Shown here one piece after another: positions 30,862 through 64,000 of a stretch of DNA of 64,000 nucleotides. The stretch is from Saccharofermentanales bacterium (lineage in GTDB: Bacteria > Bacillota > Clostridia > Saccharofermentanales > DTU023). A program made the position numbers and the translations under genes. The stretch's first letter is position 1, and each line of letters starts with the position of its first letter. The stretch covers positions 30,999-94,998 of the forward strand of contig JBBAEW010000001.1 in assembly GCA_041655695.1 (NCBI GenBank), read 5' to 3'. The notes below the pieces were generated by a model. It was given only the letters and a program-made list of their open reading frames with translations, ran no database searches and was not told the origin of the DNA.

Positions 30862-33480
30862 TTAACACTTGCGGTAGGCCCGGATCAGGGCGTTGAGTGT
30901 TTCCTTGGCGTCCCCCAGAAGGAGAGCGATCTGGTCCCGGTAATCCGACTCGTAGAGCGGATTGTCTACGCCGGCGTAACCGGGCTGCCTGTCATAGTTG
31001 CAGATAATGACGTGCCTGGCTTCTTCCACATCCAGAATGGGCATGCCGTAGATGGGGGTTCCTTCCGCTGTGTTGGCGGCAGGATTGACCACGTCGTTGG
31101 CTCCGATAATGAGCGCCACGTCGGCTTCCTTGAAGGCAGGGTTGATGTCCTGCATTTCATGAAGCTTGTCGTAGGGCACATCAACTTCCGCCAGAAGGAC
31201 GTTCATGTGGCCGGGCATTCTGCCCGCAACCGGGTGGATGGCGAATTGGACATCCTTGCCTTCTGCCTCCAGTTCAGCCATCAGCTGCTTGACCAGTGAC
31301 TGGGCCTGTGAGATGGCCATGCCGTAGCCCGGTACGATGATGACCCGCTTGGAGTCCCGCAGCCATTGACCTGCCGCGTCTTCGGGCAGAGCCTTCCCAT
31401 CTTCCGTTTGCGCCGGAACCCGGCAGACCCGGTAAGCCTGCATGATGGCGTTCAAGGAGTCCTTGGCGTCGCCGAACATGAGGGCGATATGATCCTGGCG
31501 CCCCGGTTCGTAGAGGGGGTTGTCCACGCCCGCGTAGCCGGGCAGGCTGTCAAAGTTACACATGATGACGTGCCGGGCCTCTTCCACATCCAGGATGGGC
31601 ATGCCGTAAATAGGCGTCCCCTGGGCGGTATTGGCGGCCGGGTTGACCACATCGTTGGCGCCGATGACGATGACCACATCGGTCTCTTTAAAGGCGGGGT
31701 TGATGGCGTCCATCTCGCAGAGTTTATCGTAGGGAATATCGACCTCAGCCAGGAGGACGTTCATGTGGCCCGGCATTCTGCCCGCCACAGGGTGGATGGC
31801 GAAGCGGACATCCTTGCCTTCCTGCTCCAGTTCAGCCGTCAAATGCTTGACGGTTGCCTGGGCCTGGGAAAGCGCCATGCCGTAGCCGGGGACGATGATG
31901 ATCCGCTCGGCATCACGCAGCCAGTTGCCGCATTGGAGTTCGGTCGAAAGAGCCTGGCCTTCGGGCTGAGCCTGGCCGTCTCCGGCCTCGGCCGCCCGGT
32001 AGGATTTCATGATGGCATTGAGTGTTTCCTTGGCATCGCCCAGCATGAGGGCGATATGGTCTTCACGGCCTGCGTCATAGAGGGGATTGTCCACTCCGGC
32101 GTACCCGGGCATCCGGTCGAAGTTACACAGGATAACCTTCCGGGCCTCCTCGACATCCAGGATGGGCATACCGTAGATGGGAGTTCCCTCCGCTGTGTTG
32201 GCAGCGGGGTTAATGACGTCGTTGGCGCCGATGACAAGGGCCACATCCGTATCCTTGAATTCATCATTGATGTCCTGCATCTCGTAGAGCTTGTCGTAGG
32301 GAACATCAACTTCAGCCAGGAGAACATTCATGTGACCCGGCATTCTGCCGGCGACCGGGTGGATGGCGAACTTGACTTCCTTGCCCTGGGCTTCCAGTTC
32401 AGTCATCAGCTGCTTGACCAGGGACTGAGCCTGGGAAATAGCCATGCCATAGCCAGGCACGATGATAACGCGTTCCGCGTCACGCAGCCAGCAGCCGCAG
32501 GCTTCATCCGCAGACAGGGCTTCCCTGGCGCACTCCGCTTCCTTGGCAGGAGCGTCTTTCTTGGAGGCAGCCGGTTTGCTTGGTGTTGAGGTTTTGCCCA
32601 GCAGGATTTCAAAGAGCTTGCGGTTCATGGCCCGGCACATGATTTGTGTCAGCAGCAGGCCGGAGGCTCCGACAACACCGCCAATGGCGACCAGGAGCGG
32701 GTCATTGATGGCCATACCAGCGATGGAGCCGGCAACACCCGACAGGGAGTTGAGCAGTGAAATGGTGATGGGCATATCCGCCCCGCCAACGCGGATGGCA
32801 AAGATAACGCCGAAGGCTCCCGACAAAAGAGCAGAAAGGACGATGAGCACAGCCTTGAAGACCAAAGCCTCCTGGGTGGCCGGCAGGGCCAGCAAGGCGA
32901 CTGTGATCAGTGAGCCGATAAGGGTCAGGGCAGTCCAGACCGGATGGCCCTTGAGGACGATGGGGCGCTGGGGCATGACACCCTGCAGTTTGCCGGCCGC
33001 CACCAGGCTGCCGGTCAGGGTAAGGGACCCCACAAAGATGGCCAGTCCGGCTGTAACCAGGGAGAAAATAGTCTCCGTGGGGCCGGCCGCGATCAGGGTC
33101 AGGATTCCCGCCAGCATGGAGGCACCGCCGCCCAGTCCGTTGAGCAGGCCCACCATCTGCGGCATCTGGATCATCTTGACCTTCATGGCTATGAAGAGAC
33201 CCAGGAGCAGGCCGACCAGCATGGCGATCCAGAGTTCAACAAAGGTGAAGATATCGAAATACCACAAGGTCAGGACAATGGCCAGCAGCATGCTGACCGC
33301 GCCCAGGGCGTTCCCGGCCACTGACCGCTCAACGCGGCTCATCATGGCGATACCGGCCAGGACGGCAACGGTCAGGATACCTGCGGCTATGTAATAGATG
33401 ATCATGTGGGTGGAGGAACCCGCTTCTGCGGGCATGGCCGCTGCTATCAGGGGAAGGCGGGCAAGAAGAGTCGCGATCAT
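30862..33480 (-). CDS. pntB: NAD(P) transhydrogenase subunit beta with triplicated C-terminal NADP(H)-binding dIII domain
   Basis: 872-aa ORF. Residues 1-290 match the PntB membrane domain (VGGADMPITISLLNS, LTQIMCRAMNR). The dIII block (GYGMA, HPVAGRMPGHMNVLLAE, GANDV-NPAA, GYAGVDNPLY, GDAK) then occurs three times in tandem. Confidence 0.9.
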   Translation of the reverse strand: MIATLLARLPLIAAAMPAEAGSSTHMIIYYIAAGILTVAVLAGIAMMSRVERSVAGNALGAVSMLLAIVLTLWYFDIFTFVELWIAMLVGLLLGLFIAMKVKMIQMPQMVGLLNGLGGGASMLAGILTLIAAGPTETIFSLVTAGLAIFVGSLTLTGSLVAAGKLQGVMPQRPIVLKGHPVWTALTLIGSLITVALLALPATQEALVFKAVLIVLSALLSGAFGVIFAIRVGGADMPITISLLNSLSGVAGSIAGMAINDPLLVAIGGVVGASGLLLTQIMCRAMNRKLFEILLGKTSTPSKPAASKKDAPAKEAECAREALSADEACGCWLRDAERVIIVPGYGMAISQAQSLVKQLMTELEAQGKEVKFAIHPVAGRMPGHMNVLLAEVDVPYDKLYEMQDINDEFKDTDVALVIGANDVINPAANTAEGTPIYGMPILDVEEARKVILCNFDRMPGYAGVDNPLYDAGREDHIALMLGDAKETLNAIMKSYRAAEAGDGQAQPEGQALSTELQCGNWLRDAERIIIVPGYGMALSQAQATVKHLTAELEQEGKDVRFAIHPVAGRMPGHMNVLLAEVDIPYDKLCEMDAINPAFKETDVVIVIGANDVVNPAANTAQGTPIYGMPILDVEEARHVIMCNFDSLPGYAGVDNPLYEPGRQDHIALMFGDAKDSLNAIMQAYRVCRVPAQTEDGKALPEDAAGQWLRDSKRVIIVPGYGMAISQAQSLVKQLMAELEAEGKDVQFAIHPVAGRMPGHMNVLLAEVDVPYDKLHEMQDINPAFKEADVALIIGANDVVNPAANTAEGTPIYGMPILDVEEARHVIICNYDRQPGYAGVDNPLYESDYRDQIALLLGDAKETLNALIRAYRKC
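30865..32508 (-). repeat. three tandem in-frame coding repeats (dIII-1 31990..32508, dIII-2 31423..31953, dIII-3 30865..31389)
   Basis: The equivalent point GTTCATGTGG/ATTCATGTGA recurs at 31201, 31759 and 32326, giving periods of 558 and 567 nt. By manual alignment over 165 aa the copies are about 79-83% identical in protein. Confidence 0.9.
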
Positions 33481-35327: not shown

Positions 35328-37505
35328 ATGACCCAGCTGCTTTACCCTTATCGGGCCCTTTTCTCACCCCTGCGAATCAACCAGCTGACCTTAAAGAACC
35401 GCCTGATCATGGCCCCCATGGGCAATATCTCCATGGCCGAGGAGACAGGACGGCCGAGCCCTTCCATGATTGCCTATTATGAGGAACGGGCCAGAGGCGG
35501 TGTCGGTCTGGTCACTTCGGGCCTGGTTCCCGTTTCCTTTGGCATCGACCCCTCCCTGACCGAGCCGGGTAAACTGACCTACTTCCCCAAAATCCTGGGA
35601 AGCCGCACCCATCTGGCCGGCTGGCGGGATCTGGCCCATGCCGTACACGCGGGCGGGGCTCACTTCTTCATCCAACTGTCGGCGGGCCTGGGCCGTGTCG
35701 GCAATCCTCAATGCCTGATCAACCAGGGGAAATTCCCGGTTTCCGCCTCCTTCAACCCCAATTTCTACCTGCCGGGGGTTCCCTGTCTGCGCCTGTCTGG
35801 CAGGAAGCTCAAGCGTATTGTCAAAAATTTCGGCCAGGCAGCGGCAGACGCCAAAGAAGCCACCATCGATGGTGTTTATCTGCACGGCCACGAGGGCTAC
35901 CTTCTGGAGCAGATGTCCAACCGGGCCTTCAACAGGAGGAAGGTTGGCCGTTATGCCGACTGGCAGCGATTCGGCCTGGATGCGGTCAGGGAGATCCGCA
36001 GGCGGACCGGGCCCGACTACCCCATCATGTACCGGATTGACCTGTCGCTGGCCCTGAAGGCGACCTATGGGGACCGCATGGATACGGTCAAATCTCTGGC
36101 CAAATTCAAGCGTGAACGCACCCTCAATGAGACCTTCGCTTACATGAGGAACCTGGTTGAGGCCGGCGTGGACCTCTTCGATGTCGATCTGGGCTGCTAC
36201 GACAACTGGTGGCTGCCCCATCCGCCGGAGACCATGAAACCCGGCCTCTTTCTGGAGGTTGCTCAGGCGGCCAAAGACTTCTTCTTCGAGCACAAAATTG
36301 TCACCAACCAGGGCCAGCCGGTCGCCATCGCCGCAGTCGGCAAGCTGGGCTACCCGGATCTGGCGGAAAAAGCCCTGGCGGATGGCCTGTGCGACCTGGT
36401 TATGCTGGGACGGCCCTTGCTGGCCGATCCCCAGTGGCCCAACAAGGCCTATGCCGGCTGTGTCCCGGATATCCGGCCCTGTATCGGCTGCCAGGAGGCC
36501 TGTGTCCATGAATTCATCCAGGGCGGTCACCCCATGTGCGCCGTCAATCCGCGGACTTCCTTCGAGCTGACCCTGCCGGCAGAGATCAGCCGCGCCCCCC
36601 AAAGCAAACGTCTGGCGGTCGTGGGTGCGGGCCCTGCCGGCTTTGAGTGCGCCATGGCGGCCCTTGACCGGGGCCATGAGGTTCACCTCTTCGATCTGCA
36701 GCCGGGTGTCGGCGGCATGGTCCGGCTGGCATCCGTCCCCCCCTTCAAAAGAGATACCCGCAACTACCTGGAGTGGATGGAGCGCACTGCTTCCAAGGCC
36801 CGCAGGGATAATCCCCTCTTCCGCCTGAAGACGGGGACGGAGGCGACCTTGAAAGTGCTGACGGAGGGTCAATACCAGGCCATCGTCTGTGCCACGGGCA
36901 GCCGGGAACGGATTCCTGAGCTGGAGGGAATTGAAGTGGCCCTGTCGGCCCGCGATCTCCTGCGCAACCCCTCCCTCCTTGAAGGCAAAGAGCGAGTGGT
37001 CATTCTGGGGGGCGGTCAGCTGGGCTGTGAAATTGCCTTCATGGCGGCATCGGCCTACAAGCTCTCCGTCACCCTGGTGGAGCGGCTCCCCAACCTGATG
37101 GAAGGGGTCTGCACGGCCAACCGCGGCCACCTGATCCACGAGCTGGAGAAACGCCAGGTCCAGGTGATGAACGCTGCCAAAGCTTTGGCGCTGGAGCCGG
37201 GCAAAGTCATGGTTGAAGTCAATGTCTCGCCCACGGTCCCAGACCCTTACAATACCTGGAACCCCCTCCTGCCCAAAAATGTACCCAATCCCCTGGCACG
37301 GCCTATCAAGGAAGTCCTGGAGAAGAGGGAGCTGGACGCGGATCTGATCGTCCTGGCCACGGGCAGTCAGGCCAATGATGAACTCTACCGCCTGCTCCTG
37401 GAAACATACGCTGCGCCTCAGATTCACCTGATCGGGGATGCCGACCGGCCGGGCATGATCGTCCAGGCCGTGCGGGCAGGCTACCGGACCGGAATTAATC
37501 TCTAG
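35328..37505 (+). CDS. OYE-family NADH:flavin oxidoreductase fused to FAD/NAD(P)-binding domain (2,4-dienoyl-CoA/enoate reductase-like)
   Basis: ORF 35235..37505. The N-terminal LFSPLRINQLTLKNRLIMAPMG TIM-barrel start favours ATG 35328; GTG 35235 behind GGGAGGG is an alternative. Has a Cys cluster CIGCQEAC and a dinucleotide fold LAVVGAGPAGFECA. Confidence 0.8.
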   Translation: MTQLLYPYRALFSPLRINQLTLKNRLIMAPMGNISMAEETGRPSPSMIAYYEERARGGVGLVTSGLVPVSFGIDPSLTEPGKLTYFPKILGSRTHLAGWRDLAHAVHAGGAHFFIQLSAGLGRVGNPQCLINQGKFPVSASFNPNFYLPGVPCLRLSGRKLKRIVKNFGQAAADAKEATIDGVYLHGHEGYLLEQMSNRAFNRRKVGRYADWQRFGLDAVREIRRRTGPDYPIMYRIDLSLALKATYGDRMDTVKSLAKFKRERTLNETFAYMRNLVEAGVDLFDVDLGCYDNWWLPHPPETMKPGLFLEVAQAAKDFFFEHKIVTNQGQPVAIAAVGKLGYPDLAEKALADGLCDLVMLGRPLLADPQWPNKAYAGCVPDIRPCIGCQEACVHEFIQGGHPMCAVNPRTSFELTLPAEISRAPQSKRLAVVGAGPAGFECAMAALDRGHEVHLFDLQPGVGGMVRLASVPPFKRDTRNYLEWMERTASKARRDNPLFRLKTGTEATLKVLTEGQYQAIVCATGSRERIPELEGIEVALSARDLLRNPSLLEGKERVVILGGGQLGCEIAFMAASAYKLSVTLVERLPNLMEGVCTANRGHLIHELEKRQVQVMNAAKALALEPGKVMVEVNVSPTVPDPYNTWNPLLPKNVPNPLARPIKEVLEKRELDADLIVLATGSQANDELYRLLLETYAAPQIHLIGDADRPGMIVQAVRAGYRTGINL

Positions 37506-37516
37506 GGAGACTGGCC

Positions 37517-38656
37517 ATGACAGCAAGACAAAATAAAGACCAGCCCCTGCGGCTTCTTGTGATCGGCTGCGGCCGGGCTTCCCGGGCCCACTTCAAGGCC
37601 ATCGCCTATCTTGAGAAGAAAGGCCGGGTGGTCCTGGGCGGGCTGGTGGACCGCGACCCGGCCATGATGGGGGAGGTCCTGGCCCAAAGGGACAGGAGAC
37701 TTGCCAAGCCCTACATCTCCCAGGACCTGGACGCGGCCCTGGCAGACAACCGTTTCGATGCGGCGGTCATCGCCACGCCGCCCCTGACCCACGCACCCCT
37801 GGCCCTCAAAGCCCTGGACGCCGGCTGCCACCTGGTCATGGAGAAGCCGCTGACCCTGGATCTGGGCCAGGCCGACCAGATCCTGGAGAAGGCAAAGGCA
37901 GAACAAAAGCTGATTGCCATGGGTTTCAAGTACCGCTACATACCCGGCGTCGAAGCCATCCGATCCCTGATTACCAGCGGAGCCCTGGGCCCTGTGCTCT
38001 ACGGGACCACGACCGTCCGCTGGGGCCATGATCAGGCCTATTACGATCAGGCACCCTGGTTTGGAAGCTGGGAGGCGGAGGGCGGAGCCCTGATGAATCA
38101 GGGTATTCACGCCCTGGATCTCATGGCCTGGCTCATGGATGCCCGGCCTCTGGAAGCCGCCGCCGTCCTGGCCCGCCAGGCCCACGACATGGAGGCGGCC
38201 GATCTGGTATCTGGAACCCTGACTCTGGAGAACAATGCTTATCTGATGATTGAGGCGACGACCAATACCAGGCCGGATTACATGGAGGCATCCTTCTTTC
38301 TCCGCTGTGGGGAGGGTACCGTCCGGGCCTCTTTCGCCTCCGGCAAACAGTCGGTTTCGGTCCGGCGGGATGACGGTAAGGATCTGGCTCGAGGCCTGAT
38401 CTGGAAGGCTGTCCGGGGGCATATCCGCCGCCAGGGTTCCGGCCTCATCCGCCATCTGGGCAATCCCTACACCTTCCTCTATCTGGATCTCCTGGAAGCC
38501 ATCCGGGACAAGCGGGATCCACTGGCTCCCGGCCAGGCCGGCCGCGAATCCCTGGCTCAGGGACTTGCCCTCCTGCAGGCAGGCAAGGAGAAGCGGACCG
38601 TCCCCTATCCGCCCCAGGCCTTTACCATGGGGGATCTGGCTGGTTTATTCGACTGA
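37517..38656 (+). CDS. Gfo/Idh/MocA-family oxidoreductase
   Basis: ORF with N-terminal Rossmann LRLLVIGCGRASRAH and an EKP motif (VMEKPLT). SD AGGGAGA. Confidence 0.8.
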   Translation: MTARQNKDQPLRLLVIGCGRASRAHFKAIAYLEKKGRVVLGGLVDRDPAMMGEVLAQRDRRLAKPYISQDLDAALADNRFDAAVIATPPLTHAPLALKALDAGCHLVMEKPLTLDLGQADQILEKAKAEQKLIAMGFKYRYIPGVEAIRSLITSGALGPVLYGTTTVRWGHDQAYYDQAPWFGSWEAEGGALMNQGIHALDLMAWLMDARPLEAAAVLARQAHDMEAADLVSGTLTLENNAYLMIEATTNTRPDYMEASFFLRCGEGTVRASFASGKQSVSVRRDDGKDLARGLIWKAVRGHIRRQGSGLIRHLGNPYTFLYLDLLEAIRDKRDPLAPGQAGRESLAQGLALLQAGKEKRTVPYPPQAFTMGDLAGLFD

Positions 38657-48534: not shown

Positions 48535-48694
48535 AGCCGGCCAAAGCTTGTCTGTTTCAGCGGTTGCCGTTTCTATTAAGAAACCTATGGAGATAAGGAC
48601 AAGGTTTTTTATCGTCAGCTTTACAATCAGCAAGGCAGGCCCTTCTTGTACCTCTCCGCCATTGGAAGATAATCGACTTATCAAACAAAATAAA

Positions 48695-48722
48695 GAGGGG
48701 AGCAAGCTCCCCCCTTTGTTTT
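48695..48722. terminator. bidirectional terminator between convergent genes
   Basis: GGGGAGC-AA-GCTCCCC hairpin flanked by A-rich sequence (AAAATAAAGA) on the left and TTTGTTTT on the right. Confidence 0.6.
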
Positions 48723-48755
48723 GGTGATGGCTTGACCTGTCAAGACAACAATTGT

Positions 48756-50042
48756 CTAAAAGAAGGTACTCTTCAAGAATGAGATGAAAGACCAAACACC
48801 GACGATTGAGAACGCAAAACCAACCGCAATCGTTAACCTATGGAACCAGCCGATAGCATATTTCCCCATGATTTTTTTACTTGTTGAAATATAAAACAAA
48901 GAAGCAATAATGAATGGGGTGAACAAATTGAGAATGCCCATCGCGATCATAATGACAATGAAAGGTGCAACGACCTTAGCAACCAGGGGGCCGAGCAGCC
49001 AACTGACCATAGTCAGACCTGACAGGATTTTGAATCTTGTGTCGCTGTGGATGTCTCCGTCGATCAACGCCTTTTCTTCATCACCTTTTGTTTTGAAGTT
49101 TAGCAGGTCAGCGACATAGTATCCTGTACCGAAACAAGGCGATACAGCCGTTGACCAAACTACCGCAAAGAAACCGAGAGAGAATAACCATTTGGCCGCT
49201 GATCCTCCGATAGGCGCCAAAGCGTTTGCAGCTTGGATTGCGTTTTGTACCGGAGCGGCACCAGGAGCGTGGAGGGCCGATCCGGCGAGCAGGACGCTAA
49301 CCGAGATCAAGCTGAATGCTACTCCAAGGAACATGATATTGTCCCATCTCATGACGGGCAGGTCTTCCTTTTTGAAGCCAGCCGCCTTGACCTGATAGGG
49401 ATAGAAAAGCATGGGTAGACCACCGATCGATCCACCAATTATGCCGGTCACCGCAATCAGGCTGCCTGCGGGTATCGTGGGTACCAGACCTGACAGCGCT
49501 TCAAAGAAATTGATTTTCACGAAGAAGATGTTGAGGACGAACAGAACGACCATGGCTCCTACAATGACTGATATCATAGACTTGATAAAGCTATACTTCC
49601 CTCGAAGAACCATGAAAAACAAACTGATAACCAGCAGAATCAGAGTAGAGAGGAAAGTTGAAAGATTAGGGAAGAAGACCTTAAATGCATCTGCCATCCC
49701 GACGGATACACCAATTACCGCCCCGATATTGCATACAACTTGCACCCACCCATTAACTTTTCCCCATCCCTTAAACACGTGCCTGTCGAGAGCTTGAAGA
49801 GTCGTTTTTCCAGTGACTACTGTTACCGTGCCTGCCATCATCGTAAGAGCGGCAAGCCAAACTCCTGACAGGGCCACAAGCCAAAGCAGATTGAGCCCGA
49901 ATCCGGAGCCGGCGAACAATGTCGAAGACATCGTGCCGGGCCCGATCTGAACCCCTGCTACTAAGGCGCTACTTCCGAGAGCCCTCAGCCAAAGCTGAAA
50001 ACTACTCCCTCTTTTCTTTGTGTTCAATTGCACCTCTGACAT
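48756..50042 (-). CDS. Nramp-superfamily-like transporter with non-canonical TM1 motif
   Basis: 428-aa polytopic ORF. LRALGSSALVAGVQIGPGTMSSTLFAGSGFGLNLLWLV aligns with the Nramp TM1 region, but DPGN is replaced by GPGT. Confidence 0.6.
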   Translation of the reverse strand: MSEVQLNTKKRGSSFQLWLRALGSSALVAGVQIGPGTMSSTLFAGSGFGLNLLWLVALSGVWLAALTMMAGTVTVVTGKTTLQALDRHVFKGWGKVNGWVQVVCNIGAVIGVSVGMADAFKVFFPNLSTFLSTLILLVISLFFMVLRGKYSFIKSMISVIVGAMVVLFVLNIFFVKINFFEALSGLVPTIPAGSLIAVTGIIGGSIGGLPMLFYPYQVKAAGFKKEDLPVMRWDNIMFLGVAFSLISVSVLLAGSALHAPGAAPVQNAIQAANALAPIGGSAAKWLFSLGFFAVVWSTAVSPCFGTGYYVADLLNFKTKGDEEKALIDGDIHSDTRFKILSGLTMVSWLLGPLVAKVVAPFIVIMIAMGILNLFTPFIIASLFYISTSKKIMGKYAIGWFHRLTIAVGFAFSIVGVWSFISFLKSTFF

Positions 50043-50086
50043 TTTTTGCCTCCTTTTGCTTAAGTGCTAATGTCACCTCCGGCTGT

Positions 50087-51106
50087 TTATTGGTAGCCTT
50101 TCACTATATTGATTAGGCGGCCCAATCTTTCTATCTCAACTTCTAAAACATCCTCAGCTTTCAACAAGATACTTTTTCCCGCGTACATGTGGTCAAAGAG
50201 TTTGTCAGTAGCGCTATAGCCGACGTTGGCTCCTTTGGCCATTCCCACGCCAGCGCCCGTTCCAGTGGCGATGACATCGCCAGGTGACAGAGTCGTGACT
50301 GATGATGCCGTTGCGATCAATTCGGCAACACTCCACACCATCAGATTGGTATTCGTATTTTGCATGATCTCGCCGTTTAGGTAGAGTCTGATTGATAGGT
50401 TGTCAATATCAGGAATAAACTGTGCAGGGGTTATATAAGGCCCCAAAGGCCCGAAGGTATCATTGCCTTTATTGGAAAACCAATCAAAATCAAAAGTTTC
50501 ATCGTGCCGTATCATGCGATCTCTAGCCGAGATATCGTTGTAGCAGGTGTAACCGGCTACATAATCAAGAGCTTTTTCAGCCGGAACATCTTTTGCAGAT
50601 TTCCCGATAACAATTGCCATTTCAGCTTCCCAATCCACAAAATTAGAGCGGGGTGTTAGCCTGATGGGGTCACCATGGCCAATGATGGTGTGCGTGCGGC
50701 CTTTGTAGAAAAAATAAGGTTCATGACCATCTTTTTTCGGTTTGGCTGCGCCCATTTCTAAAGCATGATCATAGTAATTAGAACCAGCATTCAGGATCTT
50801 GTCTGGGTATAGAACAGGAGGCTTGAATGCGATATCGTCCTCTTCGTAAACAAAAGATTCGGTACGGCTTGGGTTGTCATTGTAGAATCCTGCCATCTCT
50901 CCCAGAAGATTATTAAACAACTCCCATTCTTCCAAAATATCGAGCATAGTGTAGTTATGTTTAGCCTTGAATAAATCACGCTTGCCCGTTCTCATCTTGT
51001 AGTATTCATACCCACGGTTAATATCATAAAGAGAACTGTTGATCTCGATAACGGGGAATACAAATCCTCGGTGGTCGACTGTTGCTAGCTTAAATACAAG
51101 TGACAC
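50087..51106 (-). CDS. fumarylacetoacetate hydrolase (FAH) family protein
   Basis: ORF with GTG start behind AGGAGGG and a C-terminal FAH fold (VDWEAEMAIVIGK, YTCYNDISARD, LSPGDVIATGTGAGVG). Confidence 0.8.
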   Translation of the reverse strand: MSLVFKLATVDHRGFVFPVIEINSSLYDINRGYEYYKMRTGKRDLFKAKHNYTMLDILEEWELFNNLLGEMAGFYNDNPSRTESFVYEEDDIAFKPPVLYPDKILNAGSNYYDHALEMGAAKPKKDGHEPYFFYKGRTHTIIGHGDPIRLTPRSNFVDWEAEMAIVIGKSAKDVPAEKALDYVAGYTCYNDISARDRMIRHDETFDFDWFSNKGNDTFGPLGPYITPAQFIPDIDNLSIRLYLNGEIMQNTNTNLMVWSVAELIATASSVTTLSPGDVIATGTGAGVGMAKGANVGYSATDKLFDHMYAGKSILLKAEDVLEVEIERLGRLINIVKGYQ

Positions 51107-51207
51107 AATTTCCCTCCTGCTGTCTGAGATAATTTCATTTAGTAGCCTTACTTGTTATACATCTGTTCGCACTTGTCCTAAACAGACAGATCAGGCCTGG
51201 GATTGGC

Positions 51208-52224
51208 TTAATATCCTTCCACTTTGTTTTCTAATTGACCGACTTCATCGATATCGACAACAACCGTATCACCATCCTTGAGCATGATGCTCTTTCCGGC
51301 ATACATATGTTCGAATACCTTCCAAATTTCTCCGTGTTTGACTTTGATGCCTTTGCCCATTCCTACTCCAGCTCCCGTACCAGTAGCGATGATATCTCCA
51401 GGTGAAAGAGTTGTGACGGAAGAAGCAGTTTCAATCAGCTCGGCGATATCCCAAACCATCAAATTCGTATTTGTGTCTTGCATGAGTTCGCCATTAAGGT
51501 ACAATTTGACAGGCAGGTTGTTGGGATCGGAAATAAATTTCGAGGGGACGATGTAGGGTCCTAGTGGACCAAAGGTGTCATTCCCTTTATTTGAGAACCA
51601 GTCATAATCAAAAGTCTCATTCTTCCTTATCATGCGATCTCTACCGGAAATATCGTTGTAGCAGGTATATCCGGCTACGTATTCCAGTGCGTCTGAGGCG
51701 CTGACATTTTTAGCTGTTTTTCCGATCACAATAGCCAGTTCGGCTTCCCAGTCAATGTATTTGGCGCGAGGAGTTAGCCGGATTACATCCTTGTGACCAA
51801 TGATCGTATGTGTCCTACCTTTATAAAAGAAGTAAGGTTCATGGCCTTCTTTTTCTGGTTTGGCAGCGCCCATTTCCAATGCGTGATCGTGATAGTTCGA
51901 ACCGGCATTGAGAATTTTGTCGGGATAGAGGATGGGCGGTTCGAACTTAACTTCATCAACATCGAAGAAGAAATCAAAATCTTTACCGATATCAGGCCTA
52001 TAGAAAGCGCTTAATTCATCGCAAATATCTTCAAAAAGAGACCATTTCTCTAATATGTCGAGCATAGTGTAGTTGTAGTTTTTCATGAATAGATCTTGCT
52101 TGCCCACAACCTCTTTATAGTGATTGTAGCCATGACTGATCGATATTAATTTCCCATCTACTTCGATTACGGGGAAAGTGAATCCGCGATATGTAACTGT
52201 CGCCAGTTGGTACCTATTTTTCAT
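51208..52224 (-). CDS. fumarylacetoacetate hydrolase (FAH) family protein, tandem paralogue
   Basis: ORF collinear with 50087..51106 over its full length with high identity (same motifs). Confidence 0.8.
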   Translation of the reverse strand: MKNRYQLATVTYRGFTFPVIEVDGKLISISHGYNHYKEVVGKQDLFMKNYNYTMLDILEKWSLFEDICDELSAFYRPDIGKDFDFFFDVDEVKFEPPILYPDKILNAGSNYHDHALEMGAAKPEKEGHEPYFFYKGRTHTIIGHKDVIRLTPRAKYIDWEAELAIVIGKTAKNVSASDALEYVAGYTCYNDISGRDRMIRKNETFDYDWFSNKGNDTFGPLGPYIVPSKFISDPNNLPVKLYLNGELMQDTNTNLMVWDIAELIETASSVTTLSPGDIIATGTGAGVGMGKGIKVKHGEIWKVFEHMYAGKSIMLKDGDTVVVDIDEVGQLENKVEGY

Positions 52225-52323
52225 CTCTGACTGCCTCCATGTTTCTGTTTAAATTTGTCGATCGTCAATTTGACGGAATCTTAGCGAGTCGGCAATAAAT
52301 ACACTTACTCGCCTTCAAACCTG

Positions 52324-52369
52324 AAAAAAAAACCAGTGCACGTTTCAAACAAGCTGATACCCGCACTGG
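52324..52369 (-). terminator. putative terminator after the molybdoenzyme operon
   Basis: Minus strand CCAGTGC...GCACTGG (7-bp stem, large 23-nt loop) followed by T9. Confidence 0.45.
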
Positions 52370-52504
52370 CCAGCACGACGGCAACTTTGACTGTCTCCAT
52401 CGTACCTTCCATATGTGATTATTGTTCGGTTGACCTCTCGAAAGGTGCAACCCAACCAGTTAATATTTCAAGTTTCTGTACTAATTATAATGCAGCGTTC
52501 ATGC

Positions 52505-53497
52505 CTAGTCAAAGATAGCCGTGATTTTGTCAATAAGATCGAGAATGTTGCTGAAACTGTTCCGCTTTGTCTTTATAGACAGGCCAGCTTCTCTGACTAA
52601 GGCACTTTTTTGGGTCAGTTCTGCGAGCGCTTGTTTCTCAATATCATCACGTTCTTTTGATAATGAGTTAAGCGTTGTAAGTATTTTTGATTGAGTTTCT
52701 GTAAGTTCAATCGGTTCTGGAGCGACAGCCCCAACAATAATTCGCAGTCCCGGTTGAACAGAGTCAGGTGTGAATTTAAAGGCCATGTTGATAATGGGAA
52801 AGTTAAGTGAATCTCTTAAGCTTTGTTTTTGGAACTCAGCCAATGCCCCGGGCTTACATTCAGGAATGAAGAAACCCTCAATGATGAAATCTTGGCTTTG
52901 GATCAGGCCATTGATTTCGATATGTGATGCGATCAGATCATCGATGGGGATTTCTCTTCTGATACCGTCGAAGATAATTGCGGTTGCATCAAGGCTGATC
53001 AGGACCGGAGCTATATCGGAATAGTAGAGTGCTTTACAAACAGGGGATCGTGGAGCCTGATGGCAAACATCTCCACCGATTTTGAAGCATGGGGCAAGAT
53101 TTTCGCGCCATTGCGACGACTGATTGAAATAGATACATCTTCGATCCTGCAGGATATTTCCGCCAATTGTCGCGCTATTCCTTATCTGTGGGGTCGCTAC
53201 TCTTCGGGCAGCTTTTACCAGAGATGGAAACCTTGTTGCCACCAGGGCACTGTCAGCGATTTCTCGTAATGTGACCATGGATCCTATGCGGATACCTTTT
53301 TCTATCGGATCGATTCTTTTCAGTTCATCCAGATTCGCCAGACTTATGATAGCTACCGGTGCTTTTAGATTATATTTGAGCAGAGGAATGAAATCGGTTC
53401 CCCCGGCTAGATAACTGGAATTCACAACTTGATTCTTTTTCTGAAAGGCTTCCTTCAAAGTATCAGGAGCGAAAAAGTTAAAACCGTCCGTTCTCAT
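52505..53497 (-). CDS. xanthine dehydrogenase family FAD-binding subunit (CoxM/XdhB-like)
   Basis: 330-aa ORF with the FAD_binding_5 pattern (YLAGGTDFIPLLK, ATIGGNI). Confidence 0.85.
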   Translation of the reverse strand: MRTDGFNFFAPDTLKEAFQKKNQVVNSSYLAGGTDFIPLLKYNLKAPVAIISLANLDELKRIDPIEKGIRIGSMVTLREIADSALVATRFPSLVKAARRVATPQIRNSATIGGNILQDRRCIYFNQSSQWRENLAPCFKIGGDVCHQAPRSPVCKALYYSDIAPVLISLDATAIIFDGIRREIPIDDLIASHIEINGLIQSQDFIIEGFFIPECKPGALAEFQKQSLRDSLNFPIINMAFKFTPDSVQPGLRIIVGAVAPEPIELTETQSKILTTLNSLSKERDDIEKQALAELTQKSALVREAGLSIKTKRNSFSNILDLIDKITAIFD

Positions 53498-53535
53498 CTC
53501 TTATGTCCTTTCTACTTACCTTATCGCGCTAAAGA

Positions 53536-55794
53536 TTAACTATTTGATCCCTTGGGATAATAGGTATGCGTGATAGGGATAGCGGTCATATAGGTCCCGG
53601 TTGCGTTATAGATGGCGTTGACAATGGCGGGAGCTACCGGAGGGGTCGGGAGTTCACCAACACTCTTCGCACCGAAAGGGCCCGTCGACTCATAGCTTGT
53701 GACAATGTGCGTGTGAATAGCGGGCATATCGAGAGCAAGGGGGGTGTTGTAGTGAAGCAGATCTGAAGAAAGAACTTTCTTGGTTATCCTGTCAATCTCA
53801 ATCTCCTCCGTCAGGGCATAACCTAATCCCATACTGATACCACCGTGAATCTGGCCTTCGACGACATCAGGATTAATTGGTTGTCCTACATCCACGGCCT
53901 GAATAATGTGCTTAACCTGAACGCTCTTGGCTCGTTCATCAACAGCAACTTTTGCCCAACATACTACAAATGACAGAGGATCATCGGCAGGTTTGTAGTT
54001 TGAAGACCCTGTGATGATCTCATAACCCGTCTTGAGAGTCAGCATCTCCATAACTTCTTTCAAGTCCATGTCGAAATTCTTACGTCCACTATTCAGGGTG
54101 AATCGCCCCTTTGCGAAACCAATCTCTTTCCCGTCAACACTGTATAGCCGAGCTAGTCGCTCTTTTGTTTTATGAATGCAGTCTTCTACAGCCTGAGTAA
54201 CGGCGTTGCCAGCTCGGTAGGCTTGGCTGCTTGCGACGGTTCCTGTCTCATAAGGTGTGATCTCTGTATCAGCTGCGATGATGGTGATATCATTCAGATC
54301 AATCCCAAGTCCTTCAGCAGCGATTTGACTTAAGATTGTTTCGCTACCCTGACCGATATCGGCTGAACCTGTCAACAAGCTGACTGTGCCGTCTGAATTA
54401 ATCATAATCAGGCAACCGCTCGCATCCGCAATTGTTCCAGCCCCACTGGGATGGCATCCAAATGCTACGCCCCAGGCCTCTTTAATATGGTTGCTTTCAG
54501 GCTTTTTTTGATTTGCTCCTAGGTCAATATTCTTCCGAATTTGTTCTGCTTCGACGATGCATTCTTCCATGGCGCAACTGAATACTGTCTTTTCAGAGCC
54601 AGGGATTTTATCACCGGAGTTAACATGATTCTTCCGCCGAAAATCAACGGGGTCAAGCTGTAAGGCTTTGGCGATTTTCTCGAACATTACTTCCCGTGCA
54701 AAGGTTGCTTGGGGATTACCAAATCCCCTCATGGCACCGCCTGGGACGTGGTTTGTGTAAATTGCATAGCCTCTGCCAAGAAAATGTGGGATCTTGTAAT
54801 TGGTGAAAGCGAGGCTGATATTGACAACAATTCCTGCTACGTTTGCGTAAGCGCCACTGTTCAGATAGTTGTCAACAAGCATGGCTTTCAAATAGCCTTC
54901 CCTTGAGACTCCGATTTTAAGTTTCATTTTTGCGCTATGCCGCACTGTAGATCCGTACATCTGCTCTTCTCGGGAGTTGATAATCTTGACTGGCCTTCCG
55001 AGTTCCTTCGAAAAAATGGCAGCAACAGGTTGGTTATGTATCTGTTGTCTTTCTCCGAAGCCTCCACCCATAATCGGCTTGATAACGCGGATGTCGTTTT
55101 CTCTCATTTCCAGAAGCCTTGCCAGGAGACGCTTGTCTTTGAAAGGGCTTTGCGAGGTGCTGATAATTGTAAGCTTGCCACCATCGGAATAATTACAGAT
55201 GCAGCCGTTTGGTTCCAGTGAAATATTTTGAACGGTGGGGACGGAAAATTCATCTTCAAAAATGTAATCAGACTCTGCAAAACCTTGATCGATGTCACCT
55301 CTCTTTAGCTCTTTTTTGTAGAAAACATTGGAATCGAATAAATCAGGATGGAGCAAGTCAGCATCTTCTTTCATTGCTTCAAGCACGTCGAATACCGGTT
55401 TTAAAATTTCATACTCTATAACAAGTTTGTCAAGCGCCTCCTGACAGGCGATTTCGCTCGTCGCCGCAACGGCAGCGATTCTGTCTCCCATGAATAGAGG
55501 GTGGTCAGTCAGGATGGTTTGATCTTCTATAAATACCGGCGATTGAGTTATGACGGCACTATTATATAGCCTTTGGGGAACATCTTGTGGCAATAAAATT
55601 TTCAGCACTCCTGGAACCTTCTCGGATTCGGTCTTGTCGATGCTAATTACTTTGGCGTGCGAATAAGGACTTCTTTTCACCATCGCATAAACCATATTGG
55701 GCAAGGTATAGTCATCAGTGTATTTCGCCGTCCCGTTTATTTTTCTTACAGCTTCAAGTCGGGGATAGGAATCCCCTACCACTCTCAGCGCCAT
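53536..55794 (-). CDS. xanthine dehydrogenase family molybdopterin-binding large subunit
   Basis: ORF 53536..55815 (TTG) trimmed to ATG 55794 behind GGAAGGAG. Has an aldehyde oxidase/XDH a/b hammerhead and Mo-binding domains (GGGFGERQ, GNPQATFA, GQGSETILSQIAAE, GAKSVGE). Confidence 0.88.
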   Translation of the reverse strand: MALRVVGDSYPRLEAVRKINGTAKYTDDYTLPNMVYAMVKRSPYSHAKVISIDKTESEKVPGVLKILLPQDVPQRLYNSAVITQSPVFIEDQTILTDHPLFMGDRIAAVAATSEIACQEALDKLVIEYEILKPVFDVLEAMKEDADLLHPDLFDSNVFYKKELKRGDIDQGFAESDYIFEDEFSVPTVQNISLEPNGCICNYSDGGKLTIISTSQSPFKDKRLLARLLEMRENDIRVIKPIMGGGFGERQQIHNQPVAAIFSKELGRPVKIINSREEQMYGSTVRHSAKMKLKIGVSREGYLKAMLVDNYLNSGAYANVAGIVVNISLAFTNYKIPHFLGRGYAIYTNHVPGGAMRGFGNPQATFAREVMFEKIAKALQLDPVDFRRKNHVNSGDKIPGSEKTVFSCAMEECIVEAEQIRKNIDLGANQKKPESNHIKEAWGVAFGCHPSGAGTIADASGCLIMINSDGTVSLLTGSADIGQGSETILSQIAAEGLGIDLNDITIIAADTEITPYETGTVASSQAYRAGNAVTQAVEDCIHKTKERLARLYSVDGKEIGFAKGRFTLNSGRKNFDMDLKEVMEMLTLKTGYEIITGSSNYKPADDPLSFVVCWAKVAVDERAKSVQVKHIIQAVDVGQPINPDVVEGQIHGGISMGLGYALTEEIEIDRITKKVLSSDLLHYNTPLALDMPAIHTHIVTSYESTGPFGAKSVGELPTPPVAPAIVNAIYNATGTYMTAIPITHTYYPKGSNS

Positions 55795-55795
55795 C

Positions 55796-56329
55796 TTATA
55801 CTCCTTCCTTTTCAAGGGATTTCTTCACTCGCATCTCTTCTGCCGCATCTGCTACCGCTTCAACGATCTTGGTGTAGCCAGTGCAGCGGCAAAGATTTCC
55901 TGAGATTGCTTCCTTAATTTCAAATTCAGTTGGATCGGGATTGTTGTCAAGAAGATCCTTGGCCGCCATGATCATACCTGGGGTGCAGAAGCCACACTGA
56001 ACTCCCCCGAGTTTGGCGAAAGATTTTTGTAATGGATGGAGATCTTGATCACAAGAGATACCTTCAATCGTTATGACGCTCTTTTGATCCACTTGTGCAG
56101 CCAGTGTGGTACACGCATAAACGGCTCGTCCATTCAGAAGGACAGTGCACGCACCACAATGACTGCTATTACAAGCATTTTTAGTGCCCAAAAATCCTAT
56201 TTCTCTTCTCAGTAGTTCAAGTAACGTCAGCTCGGGACGAATTGAACATTCATGGAGTTGACCGTTGATGTGCAATGTTATGACGAGCATTTGACGTTCT
56301 CTTCCAAGGGGGTTCATTTTATCTAGCAT
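55796..56329 (-). CDS. xanthine dehydrogenase family [2Fe-2S] small subunit
   Basis: ORF with cysteine motifs [11 protein letters not shown] and CGFCTPGM...[17 protein letters not shown] 7 nt before ATG 56329. Confidence 0.9.
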
Positions 56330-56350
56330 CTCAGTGCTCTCCTTTTCCGA

Positions 56351-56400
56351 AAATAAAAAGGCCGGTACACCAATTGCCGCAACAATTGTATGTACCGACC
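56351..56400 (-). terminator. intrinsic terminator in the leader immediately upstream of the molybdoenzyme operon (candidate attenuator)
   Basis: Minus strand GGTCGGTACA...TGTACCGGCC (10-bp stem including one G-U) followed by CTTTTTATTTT. The U-tract ends about 6 nt before the SD of the first operon gene. Confidence 0.65.
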
Positions 56401-56525
56401 AATATGATAACTATAACTATTTATCACACCTGCCGACACAAAATCGGTTTTAGTTGAAATTCTATTTGTGTAAAAATTCAACCAAAATTAAGGTTGGGAA
56501 AGGCTCTCCCCTGTCGATAAGAGTA

Positions 56526-56870
56526 TCATCTTTCGATCATTTTATCAAGAATAAACAAAAAATAAAGCGTATCTTTCTCGATCGAAAGCTTGCTGAGAAA
56601 ATCAATGACCTTGCAGCCTAGGAGTCGCTCAACTTCAGCAGCGTGATGCTCTTGGCATCGTGCTTTGATAATCTTTCGAAGTTTACCTATCAGTTCGATT
56701 CCATCACTCGTATGAAGCAGGCTCGTCTCCAGGGGTGTGAAAATTCCATTGAACTCGACGACGATGTAGTTTTTGGTCACACCTACGTTAGTCTGGACGG
56801 GTCCCTTCCCCACATCATCCTTATAAAGCTTTATGAAGCTTTCCCTCAGTTGCACCTCAAGTGGCTTCAT
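56526..56870 (-). CDS. DUF2294-family small protein
   Basis: 114-aa ORF. The pattern DDVGKGPVQTNVGVTKNYIVVEFNGIFTPLE...GCKVIDFLS...LYFLFILD matches my recollection of the DUF2294 consensus. [10 protein letters not shown]. Confidence 0.6.
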   Translation of the reverse strand: MKPLEVQLRESFIKLYKDDVGKGPVQTNVGVTKNYIVVEFNGIFTPLETSLLHTSDGIELIGKLRKIIKARCQEHHAAEVERLLGCKVIDFLSKLSIEKDTLYFLFILDKMIER

Positions 56871-57156
56871 TAAGACTACCTCCTTTCCGGTTTTTCCCAG
56901 CGGACAACGTGTTCACCGGCAATCTTGTTCCAGTTCGGGTCTAACAAGATGGACTGCGATTCTGTTCATATCATAACAGCAACATACAATTATCTTGTAT
57001 TTTCTACCAATTGCCAAGCAGCATCAGAGAGCTGTTATTTAGATTGTAGATGACTAATTCCTGTGTTTCTTCCATGTGTGGGTTTCCTTCAATATATCAC
57101 CCTATTTCAATATGCTTCACGGCAGGTCATCTTAGCCGGTCGCCGTACAGGTGTGC

Positions 57157-61776: not shown

Positions 61777-61812
61777 GGGCGCCCCGGGCTCGTACCCGGA
61801 GCGCTCTTTTTA
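61777..61812 (+). terminator. rho-independent terminator after tuf
   Basis: GGGCGCCCCGGG-CTCGTA-CCCGGAGCGCTC followed by TTTTT. Confidence 0.7.
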
Positions 61813-61856
61813 TTGGCGGCCTTGTGAGAGAATGTGAAACCAAGGAGGTGGCAGGC

Positions 61857-62384
61857 ATGCAGGATATTTTACTGGTTGTCGATATGCAGGAGGATTTCGT
61901 GGACGGCTCCCTGGGGACCCTCGAGGCGCGCTCGATCGTTGCCAATGTGGTCCGGAAGATGGAGAACCATCAGGGTCCCGTCATCTTTACCCAGGATACG
62001 CACGGTCCCGATTATCTTGAGACCCAGGAGGGCAGGATGCTCCCCGTCGAGCACTGCATCCGCGGCAGCCGGGGCTGGCAGATCGTCCAGGAAGTGGCCC
62101 AGGCCCGTCAGGGGCGGATTATTGAGAAGGATACCTTCGGCGCCCGCGACCTGCCCGGCCTTCTGATGGAAATGAATGAGGAAGACCCCATCTCCTCCAT
62201 CACTCTGGTGGGCCTTTGCACGGACATCTGTGTCATCTCCAATGCCATGCTGATCAAGGCCTTCCTGCCGGAAGTACCTATTATCGTCGACTCGGACTGC
62301 TGCGCGGGCGTCACACCACAAAGCCACCAGGTGGCCCTGGATGCCATGAGAGTCTGCCAGATTCAGGTGACCGGCCCGGCTTAA
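61857..62384 (+). CDS. isochorismatase-family cysteine hydrolase (nicotinamidase-like)
   Basis: ORF 61695..62384 trimmed to ATG 61857 behind AAGGAGG. Has LLVVDMQEDF and the catalytic Cys region LVGLCTDICV. Confidence 0.8.
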   Translation: MQDILLVVDMQEDFVDGSLGTLEARSIVANVVRKMENHQGPVIFTQDTHGPDYLETQEGRMLPVEHCIRGSRGWQIVQEVAQARQGRIIEKDTFGARDLPGLLMEMNEEDPISSITLVGLCTDICVISNAMLIKAFLPEVPIIVDSDCCAGVTPQSHQVALDAMRVCQIQVTGPA

Positions 62385-62731
62385 AGAAGGCCGTCGTAGT
62401 CGCCTTCCCTGTAGCCGATCAGGACCTGATCATCCAGAACAAAGAGCGGCCTTTTAACCAGAAAACCGTCGGTGGCCAGAATTTCGATCATCTGATCCTC
62501 GCTCATGAGCGGCAGCTTGTCCTTGAGACCCAGCTGCCGGTATTTGATTCCGCTGGTATTGAAAAAGCTTCTGGCGGGTTTGCCGCTGCGGGTGATCCAG
62601 GTTTTCAGCTCCTGGCTTGTCGGCCTCTCCTCGTGGATGGGCCGGTAGGTGTAAGGGATTTTGTGCTCATCAAGGAACCTCCTTGCTTTTCGGCAGGTCA
62701 TTCACTTGGGATAACAGAGAAAGAGATTCAT
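62381..62731 (-). CDS. ArsC/Spx-family thiol-redox protein, predicted selenoprotein (TGA codon 10 read as Sec)
   Basis: ORFs 62702..62989 (tail ...MNLFLCYPK) and 62381..62701 (MTCRKARRFLDEHKIPY) are in the same frame, separated only by TGA (62702..62704). Joined, MNLFLCYPK-U-MTCRKARRFLDEHKIPY aligns with Spx [36 protein letters not shown] is 7 nt before ATG 62731, and there is no SD before ATG 62701. Confidence 0.65.
62671..62685 (-). promoter_or_regulatory. candidate bacterial SECIS stem-loop
   Basis: The mRNA reads CAAGGA-GGU-UCCUUG starting 16 nt after the UGA. The apical loop contains GGU about 22 nt downstream of the UGA. A flanking UGC/GCA lower helix is possible. Confidence 0.45.
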
Positions 62732-62753
62732 CCTTCCGCTCCTTTCACAGGGG

Positions 62754-64000
62754 TCAAAGCCCCAGCTGCTGCCTGGCTTTGATGTAGTCTTGGGGTGTAT
62801 CCAGATCCAGGCCGCCCTGCCAGTCGGGGTCGGGGATCTCCATGATGGCTTCCTGGTGGCGGCCCAGGATCTGACGGCCGCCCGCGTCACCCGTAAGCAG
62901 AGATAATTCCGGATAGTAGAGCCGGTCAAAGAGTACGGGTGAGGACCGGTGACCCTGGCGGACAGGGACCATGATCTGCCCCTCCTCATGGGCCTCCAGG
63001 AGATGGCGGATCAGGCGGGGGGAGATCAGGGGCTGATCGCCCGGGACAAAGAAACAGACACGGCTTTGCGGGTCCAGCTCCTGGACCCCGCAGGCAACCG
63101 ATGTCCCCTGGCCCTCCCGGTAGCGGTCGTTTGTGACAAGGGCGGTCCGGATTCGTCCGGCCTTCTTCCCTGCCAGCAAAGGTTTCAGGTTTTCCCTTAT
63201 TTTTTCGCTGTCATGGCCGGTTACAATGACAAGATCACTGATGGGCTGATCCAGAAGCTGCCGGACGGTCCGGGAGATAACTGTTTCCTCCCCCAGTTTG
63301 AGGAGGAGTTTGTTTGCCCCCTCCATGCGGCTGGAAAGGCCGGCCGCCAGGACCAGGGCTGAGATGACGGGGGATGTCCGCCCCTCCTGCCGGCAGCTAT
63401 AGAACGTTCTTGATTCAGAGTCGGTCCGGCCCTGAAAGAAAAGAGCGTCGACCCGGTCCATGGCCAGCAGTTCTTTGGCCAGGGCCTCCAGACGTTCAGG
63501 GGTCCGGTCTTCCGGACGCAGGTGGTCGCATTGATTAAAGACCAGGGCGACTTTGCTGGAAAGGGGAATACCTTTCCAGAAATGACCGCTTTTAAGAAGG
63601 CGGAGCAGGTGACCAAAAAGGACAGGCTGTCCCTGCTTAAGGCCGGCTTTTTCCGAGAAGATCCCGCTTCGATGGACCAGGCTTTCATCCAGAGGCTGGC
63701 CCAGGGCCGAGAGGCCGAAAACGATCAGGGTCAAATCCGTTGTTCTGGGAATGACCGGTTCGTGGGGGGCATGTGCCTTGAGGGCTTTGCGCTTGGAGCC
63801 GTCCGCCTCGCAAAGGATCAGGGAGGACGAATCCGAGAGGCGGCGGCGGTCCCTGACCCAGCCGTCCAGGAGGTCCCGGTCAATACCCTGATACTTGCCT
63901 GGTATCTCCTGCAGGGCAGATCCCAGCCAAAGGCCGGACCGGCCGTCCGGTTCAGGAAGCAATTTTGTCAGATCCGGGTTCTCTTTCTGTTTTGGGGTCA
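62754..64000 (-). CDS. YqeC-like selenium-cofactor accessory domain fused to MobA/MocA-like molybdenum cofactor nucleotidyltransferase (5' end outside window)
   Basis: The ORF frame stays open to the window edge. The N-terminal part (CEADGSKRKALKAHAPHEPVIP) resembles YqeC. Residues ~198-402 (nt 62757..63371) show the NTP_transf_3 pattern LVLAAGLSSRMEGANKLLL...VPGDQPLI. Confidence 0.6.
   Translation of the reverse strand, partial: TPKQKENPDLTKLLPEPDGRSGLWLGSALQEIPGKYQGIDRDLLDGWVRDRRRLSDSSSLILCEADGSKRKALKAHAPHEPVIPRTTDLTLIVFGLSALGQPLDESLVHRSGIFSEKAGLKQGQPVLFGHLLRLLKSGHFWKGIPLSSKVALVFNQCDHLRPEDRTPERLEALAKELLAMDRVDALFFQGRTDSESRTFYSCRQEGRTSPVISALVLAAGLSSRMEGANKLLLKLGEETVISRTVRQLLDQPISDLVIVTGHDSEKIRENLKPLLAGKKAGRIRTALVTNDRYREGQGTSVACGVQELDPQSRVCFFVPGDQPLISPRLIRHLLEAHEEGQIMVPVRQGHRSSPVLFDRLYYPELSLLTGDAGGRQILGRHQEAIMEIPDPDWQGGLDLDTPQDYIKARQQLGL

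Follow-up and report, generated by a model that had tools for sequence, protein, structure and literature searches.

A YqeC-MocA fusion gene in a yqeB operon of a Saccharofermentanales bacterium, with a 4-hydroxybenzoyl-CoA reductase-like enzyme as candidate client

In a 64,000-nt stretch of the genome of a Saccharofermentanales bacterium (GenBank assembly GCA_041655695.1, contig JBBAEW010000001.1, positions 30,999 to 94,998 of the forward strand; the whole stretch is referred to as the window), the gene at the far end was confirmed to encode a fusion of a YqeC-family P-loop domain (N-terminal) to a MocA-type nucleotidyltransferase domain (C-terminal). The operon to which this gene, yqeC::mocA, belongs is predicted, with fair probability, to be a selenium-molybdenum cofactor maturation system, for which a 4-hydroxybenzoyl-CoA reductase (4-HBCR)-like enzyme of the xanthine dehydrogenase (XDH) family, encoded in a nearby low-GC island, is the likeliest client within reach. 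An accessory role for selenium-dependent molybdenum hydroxylases has been proposed for YqeB, YqeC and YgfJ (PMC2276186), and YqeB and YqeC are regarded as markers of the selenium-cofactor trait (PMC2276186, PMC5029168).

The open reading frame (ORF) of yqeC::mocA runs on the minus strand from the window end at 64000 to a TGA stop at 62756-62754 (414 codons). The feature at 62754..64000 comprises the 3′ 83% of the gene (codons 84-497 plus the stop), as defined by its translation, its hidden Markov model (HMM) matches and the identical sequence at 5614-7107 of contig L003 (ENA ERZ27247346; the prefix L denotes the loci used for comparison). The first 83 codons, including the P-loop, fall beyond the window end, as the initial annotation had stated for the 5′ end. 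They were supplied by L003, which was reached by look-up of the neighbouring isochorismatase-family protein, is identical to window 61800-64000 (100% over 2201 nt) and runs 9 kb beyond it. Extending the window in this way recovered the 83 missing residues, with the P-loop GGGGKT among them, and a yqeB gene overlapping the start; the full-length fusion has 497 aa.

The C-terminal two thirds of the YqeC-family P-loop NTPase domain lie at 63393..64000 (minus strand) and were recognised by TIGR03172, PF19842 and the EADG, K and HEP motifs. Residues 31-173 of the window fragment matched TIGR03172 with 87.1 bits (E 1.4e-24, model positions 71-206 of 209), above the curated YqeC cut-off of 73.05 bits, and PF19842 gave 73.3 bits against a cut-off of 27.6; with the full-length protein TIGR03172 was covered from position 1 to 206 at 116.6 bits. 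The second domain (62757..63392, minus strand) is a predicted molybdenum cofactor nucleotidyl(cytidylyl)transferase of the MocA/YgfJ type, based on PF12804, TIGR03310, motifs and Foldseek, and the motifs LVLAAGLSSRMEGANKLL and FFVPGDQP (the latter quoted as VPGDQP in the initial annotation) were read in the translation. Residues 213-407 of the fragment fell in the MocA/YgfJ group, with TIGR03310 as the top-scoring family (141.8 bits, E 2.4e-41), PF12804 (NTP_transf_3) at 124.3 bits and the PucB profile at 86 bits. Because the TIGR03310 score stays under the trusted (equivalog) cut-off of 186.45 bits, the domain is best described as MocA-type and not as a MocA equivalog. The proposed HMM check of both domains thus held for YqeC and stopped short of the family cut-off for MocA, while the predicted architecture, YqeC followed by a MobA/MocA-type nucleotidyltransferase, proved right.

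The fusion is widespread, and we found no description of a YqeC-MocA fusion in the literature; it represents the known accessory system in a fused form. PF19842 and PF12804 occurred together in 115 of the 120 best homologue clusters, with lengths of 440-550 aa, and at least 115 clusters in Clostridia and Chloroflexota bear the fusion. The homologues from Clostridia (Fastidiosipila, Saccharofermentanales) are 45-54% identical, those from Chloroflexota (Anaerolineae and relatives) about 30-35%. The databases name them "selenium cofactor biosynthesis protein YqeC" (NCBI) or "molybdenum cofactor cytidylyltransferase" (JGI), and a contig search with the full-length fusion protein as query returned five loci. 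In a 59-sequence alignment (A2) the invariant columns of the YqeC half were the P-loop GxGGK(T), EAD(G), a Lys and a Glu-Pro pair (the HEP motif), and those of the MocA half AAGxSxR..K and DQP; the P-loop and EADG were also invariant in alignment A5.

AlphaFold2 modelled the full fusion as a compact two-domain protein (pLDDT 92.7, pTM 0.92) and the YqeC domain alone with a pLDDT of 91.5. The best Foldseek matches of the C-terminal domain were the MocA-like protein Rv0371c (2WAW/2WE9; template modelling (TM) score 0.83-0.87) and MobA (TM 0.77). Comparison of the YqeC domain with solved structures by profile and fold gave similarity at the P-loop level only, to MeaB/MMAA, HypB, FtsY and guanylate kinase; membership in a MobB-like or G3E-chaperone family is therefore not claimed. 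Since the domain has no close solved relative in these comparisons, a "nucleotide-gated chaperone" role for YqeC would be an analogy and not a result.

In L003, yqeB (TIGR03309, 323 bits, cut-off 220) lies directly upstream with a 23-nt overlap with the start of yqeC::mocA, and the fusion gene is translationally coupled to it. The transcription unit is (cofE-like)-yqeB-yqeC::mocA-arsC(Sec), where Sec denotes selenocysteine. Upstream of yqeB the L003 extension encodes a 411-aa CofE-like protein (PF01996), lgt, a DUF4190 protein and a UvrD-type helicase, and a promoter-like site, a consensus match only, precedes the cofE-like gene. The same gene order, with yqeB upstream of the fusion, was found in L001, L010, L014 and L016. 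L014/L015 (a Fastidiosipila sp. metagenome-assembled genome) and L016 (GCA_040767365.1) have in common the order Bmp-ABC-permease-permease, rpsL-rpsG-fusA-tuf-isochorismatase and then, on the opposite strand, arsC, yqeC::mocA, yqeB, cofE-like and UvrD, which the flanking genes of the window match. A four-gene block of cofE-like, yqeB, yqeC::mocA and arsC(Sec) is kept beside the str operon in Saccharofermentanales relatives. With YqeB, YqeC and MocA together, both published markers of the selenium-cofactor trait are therefore present.

The CofE-like gene (7945-9180 of L003, minus strand, just past the window end; also in L010, L014 and L016) encodes a PF01996 protein with an insertion of about 160 aa and immediately precedes yqeB in all loci of the Saccharofermentanales type. 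A sequence search gave no solved relative of it. It is 72-80% identical across loci, whereas YqeC::MocA is only 45-56% identical. In the Chloroflexota loci L017 and L019 the F420 genes for CofC and CofD (and CofE in L019) adjoin XDH genes and yqeC::mocA.

The candidate client is encoded in a low-GC island of about 8.5 kb (48600..57140) between an ABC permease gene and rpsL. The island has a GC content of 0.448, against 0.58 for the window outside it and 0.59-0.60 for the fusion gene, which bears out the initial view of a compositionally foreign enzyme locus and a host-like maturation gene. It carries genes for an Nramp transporter, two FAA-hydrolase-family paralogues, the FeS, Mo and FAD subunits of the XDH-family enzyme, and an MpsC-like protein. 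In L016 the permease gene and rpsL are separated by 180 nt, and L014 has no XDH genes at that site; because these syntenic relatives keep the flanks without the island, it is a lineage-specific insertion. The left junction recurs across several independent samples, and the right junction, at which short-read contigs break, is spanned solely by overlapping contig ends: L003 begins at about window position 57142, and L020-L024 stop about 400 nt past the MpsC-like gene. The borders showed no integrase, transposase or tRNA, and a 9-bp direct repeat, GCTTTACAA, at 48618 and 57155 was rejected as a target-site duplication, about 0.5 such matches being expected by chance. The island carries no mocA, xdhC, yqeB or yqeC and must therefore rely on host functions.

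The XDH-family genes occupy 56329-52505 (minus strand) in small-large-medium order, 6.4 kb from the host maturation operon. They encode a [2Fe-2S] small subunit (55796..56329, minus strand; PF01799, PF00111 and NCBIfam gamma-subunit models), a Mo-binding large subunit (53536..55794, minus strand; NCBI protein MFA5585005.1; 752 aa as called in L020; PF01315, PF02738, PF20256) and an FAD subunit (52505..53497, minus strand) whose translation contains a 4-HBCR-type [4Fe-4S] insertion, C-x15-C-x7-C-x8-C. The four residues C120, C136, C144 and C153 of the latter align to Cys of the beta subunit of 4-HBCR (1RM6_B, 134.8 bits), and the best solved relative of the Mo subunit is the alpha subunit (1RM6_A, 321 bits). 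The NCBIfam 4-HBCR equivalogs (TIGR03193-03195) were not reached (alpha 494 bits against a cut-off of 994.55, beta 174.3 against 404.55, gamma 176 against 257.8), and for this reason the enzyme is classed as 4-HBCR-like and not as 4-HBCR. A tblastn search of the window and all fetched loci detected no second XDH-family gene, in agreement with the earlier statement that this enzyme is the only such candidate there.

Gene neighbourhoods elsewhere support the island enzyme as a client, as had been suggested. The two closest homologues of its Mo subunit (71-72% identical) were found in L027 (GCA_964408955.1, 36% GC) and L028 (a fermentation metagenome, 35% GC), which share the FAD subunit and FAA-hydrolase genes with the island, then run through a split thiamine pyrophosphate-dependent decarboxylase, an aminotransferase and an NhaC-type transporter, and both end in separate yqeC (182 bits), mocA (189.5 bits) and yqeB (362 bits) genes; at 189.5 bits the stand-alone MocA of L027 is above the TIGR03310 cut-off. 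Pairwise identity of these two loci is 79% for the Mo subunits and 36%, 39% and 50% for YqeC, MocA and YqeB. Because the maturation proteins are far more diverged than the Mo subunits, the linkage appears either to have been kept through much divergence or to have been assembled twice. In all three Chloroflexota loci examined, the fusion gene follows immediately after XDH-family Mo and FAD/FeS genes, and yqeB overlaps its start in one of them. Taken together, these neighbourhoods tie the fusion to XDH-family enzymes generally, and the island enzyme type to YqeB, YqeC and MocA particularly.

Two further observations concern these homologues. At 111-1817 of L027 an IS110-family transposase occupies the expected site of the [2Fe-2S] subunit, and tblastn found no FeS subunit in the locus; the enzyme cluster may be interrupted in this locus. 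L058-L107, contigs from human-gut metagenomes, form a large, near-uniform clade with Mo subunits 43% and FAD subunits 35-43% identical to those of the island, and are possibly of the urolithin dehydroxylase (Ucd) type described from Enterocloster (bioRxiv 10.1101/2024.02.08.579493).

MocA adds CMP to Mo-molybdopterin, forming molybdopterin cytosine dinucleotide (MCD) for xanthine-oxidase-family enzymes (PMC2997495). By family knowledge, the MocA domain of the fusion would likewise attach CMP to Mo-molybdopterin to give MCD, and the YqeC NTPase domain and YqeB would then act on the cofactor or the apo-enzyme, installing a labile selenium ligand with selenophosphate made by SelD as the donor. 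Read as a Rosetta-stone fusion, the protein would couple cytidylylation and the YqeC step physically, as is the case for MobA with MobB. YqeC may thus act at or next to the MCD-forming step, because the halves of the fusion correspond to genes found side by side in E. coli, C. difficile and L027/L028. More tentatively, and with rather less than even confidence, we suggest that the island enzyme, with its [4Fe-4S]-bearing FAD subunit and neighbouring FAA-hydrolase paralogues, could represent an unrecognised selenium-dependent branch of molybdenum enzymes, probably reductive on a non-purine substrate and matured in trans by the host YqeB and YqeC::MocA, with YqeC acting at or just after cytidylylation. 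A reductive enzyme, DOPDH, needs SelD for activity (bioRxiv 10.1101/2025.04.24.650524).

The gene downstream of the fusion bears on the selenium supply. This ArsC/Spx-family gene (62381..62731, minus strand, 116 codons) is probably co-transcribed with yqeC::mocA: its ATG at 62731 lies on the same strand 22 nt downstream of the fusion stop, the distance given in the initial annotation, and the gap holds a GGAG-type ribosome-binding site. TIGR01617 matched the product with 102 bits when U was read as C. Codon 10 is a TGA (62702-62704) in place of the first Cys of a CxxC motif, and L001, L014 and L016 have TGA at the identical codon, with 68-97% protein identity and conserved coding on both sides. 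Among the 120 nearest homologues, 114 carry at this position the first Cys of CxxC (FLCYPKCSTC, compared with FLCYPKUMTC here). A hairpin, CAAGGA-GGU-UCCUUG, is conserved 19 nt after the UGA; RNAalifold on three sequences showed no covariation, and Rfam gave no match and no selenocysteine insertion sequence family at this gene. Sec decoding of the gene is nevertheless well supported by the comparison of homologues, making the earlier call of a selenoprotein credible, and an organism that decodes Sec would have to possess SelD. Linkage of arsC to the operon is limited to closely syntenic genomes and absent in L009 and L010; for this reason a functional tie between the ArsC selenoprotein and cofactor maturation is not supported. 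Gene callers gave the protein as a truncated 106-aa product, or as 58-aa and 36-aa fragments in relatives, and the selenoprotein is consequently under-annotated in databases.

Several results weigh against a selenium-cofactor operon that serves the island enzyme. The score of the MocA domain is below the equivalog cut-off, and for the YqeC domain no solved structure comes close (Foldseek E 2e-3 at best, TM no higher than 0.46). tblastn found no selD in the window and its 9-kb extension (about 73 kb of the genome) or in the fetched loci, a weak negative obtained with an approximate SelD query. In C. difficile deletion of yqeC had no phenotype (PMC11448449), and with that deletion silent the role of YqeC is unproven anywhere. 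A selenium requirement of 4-HBCR or of the related urolithin dehydroxylase was not found reported in the literature. Two further points concern the client: L014 and L016 have the operon but lack the island, and yqeB together with yqeC occurred in the fetched flanks of only 1 of 78 more distant loci of the island enzyme (41-56% identity). Set against the two closest loci, the latter count gives a Fisher p of about 9e-4, for flanks that are uneven and loci that are non-independent.

These last two points suggest that the operon could have as its client another XDH-family enzyme encoded elsewhere, such as a purine hydroxylase, and that its 6.4-kb proximity to the island enzyme is coincidental, an explanation that we consider rather unlikely. 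The island is a recent insertion, L014 and L016 have no XDH genes within 10 kb of their operon, and nearby yqeB and yqeC are missing for 77 of the 78 distant homologues. As the operon persists in relatives that lack the island, it must have at least one other client, and the island enzyme is neither its sole nor its original one. However, the closest clusters, in L027 and L028, hold yqeC-mocA-yqeB in one gene string, and the island, devoid of its own maturation genes, needs those of the host; the two readings are moreover compatible, as one operon may serve several clients.

Less probable still is a selenium-free role, in which the operon would replace XdhC-type sulfuration and insertion in maturing the MCD cofactor of XDH-family enzymes and the selenium label would stem from phylogenetic profiling only. 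YqeC has no demonstrated biochemical function and a silent deletion, Zhang and colleagues considered that YqeB or YqeC alone may serve selenium-independent processes (PMC5029168), the nearest characterised relatives of the island enzyme, 4-HBCR and Ucd, are not known to depend on selenium, and the search for selD came up empty. Yet the accepted signature of the trait, YqeB together with YqeC, is present here; YqeB is confined to selD-positive genomes (PMC2276186); deletion of yqeB in C. difficile mimics deletion of selD on xanthine and urate (PMC11448449); and the organism uses Sec, hence has selenophosphate available. An assembly or frameshift artefact, or a chimera, joining two genes, a concern raised by the window end cutting the gene and by the metagenome source, can be dismissed, since the fusion junction is identical in the independent assembly L003 and 95% identical in L001 and L002, 115 of the 120 clusters listed, drawn from two phyla, have the same architecture, and the model is that of a single compact protein.

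Several known systems resemble the operon or its parts. E. coli YqeC (b2876), MocA/YgfJ (b2877) and YqeB (b2875) belong to the same three families (TIGR03172, TIGR03310-like and TIGR03309) and their genes are adjacent; however, they are separate proteins, with yqeC-yqeB divergent from mocA, whereas the present operon has YqeC and MocA in a single polypeptide, with yqeB upstream on the same strand. E. coli YqeB has 541 aa with an extra XdhC-CoxI domain, compared with 273 aa here, and the MocA domain of the fusion is divergent, with its score under the equivalog cut-off. In C. difficile, likewise a member of the Clostridia, yqeC adjoins mocA near XDH-family genes (Johnstone and Self 2024, PMC11448449), but the genes are separate, yqeB is located elsewhere and the clients are purine-degrading XDHs, in contrast to the 4-HBCR-like candidate client here. 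The bifunctional MobA/MobB (NCBIfam NF011056), an architectural analogue for the guanine dinucleotide branch, also combines a molybdenum cofactor nucleotidyltransferase with a small P-loop NTPase, but with reversed domain order and a P-loop protein of another family, and MobA makes molybdopterin guanine dinucleotide for DMSO-reductase-family enzymes, not MCD. Cytidylyltransferases of the Rv0371c/PucB/MocA types resemble the C-terminal domain of the fusion and are associated with XDH- or CODH-family enzymes, yet they are stand-alone proteins of about 190 aa without a YqeC domain. On the client side, 4-HBCR (HcrCAB, 1RM6) is the best solved relative of the island Mo and FAD subunits and has the identical four-Cys [4Fe-4S] insertion; no use of selenium or of YqeB/YqeC is known for it, and the context of the island, with FAA-hydrolase paralogues, Nramp and an MpsC-like gene, differs.

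Some ORFs elsewhere in the window stand apart from these subjects. Three long ones on the minus strand, at 26281-28212, 28220-29350 and 35391-37526 (643, 376 and 711 aa), had no Pfam match at E<=1e-5, and the strand of the last is uncertain because a 756-aa ORF on the opposite strand overlaps it. The ORF at 30862-33480 (minus strand, 872 aa) matched the transhydrogenase beta subunit (PNTB) in three stretches with 1047 bits; at about twice the usual length, it suggests a fused or duplicated pnt gene.

To our knowledge, the insertion of selenium into molybdenum hydroxylases is the least understood biological route of selenium, and we know of no biochemical role for YqeC. The known picture stays unchanged unless experiments confirm selenium dependence. 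A natural YqeC-cytidylyltransferase fusion points to a pathway step for YqeC and gives a single polypeptide for biochemistry, and the link of yqeC-mocA-yqeB to a 4-HBCR-like cluster suggests that the selenium-dependent group may reach past the purine and nicotinate hydroxylases.

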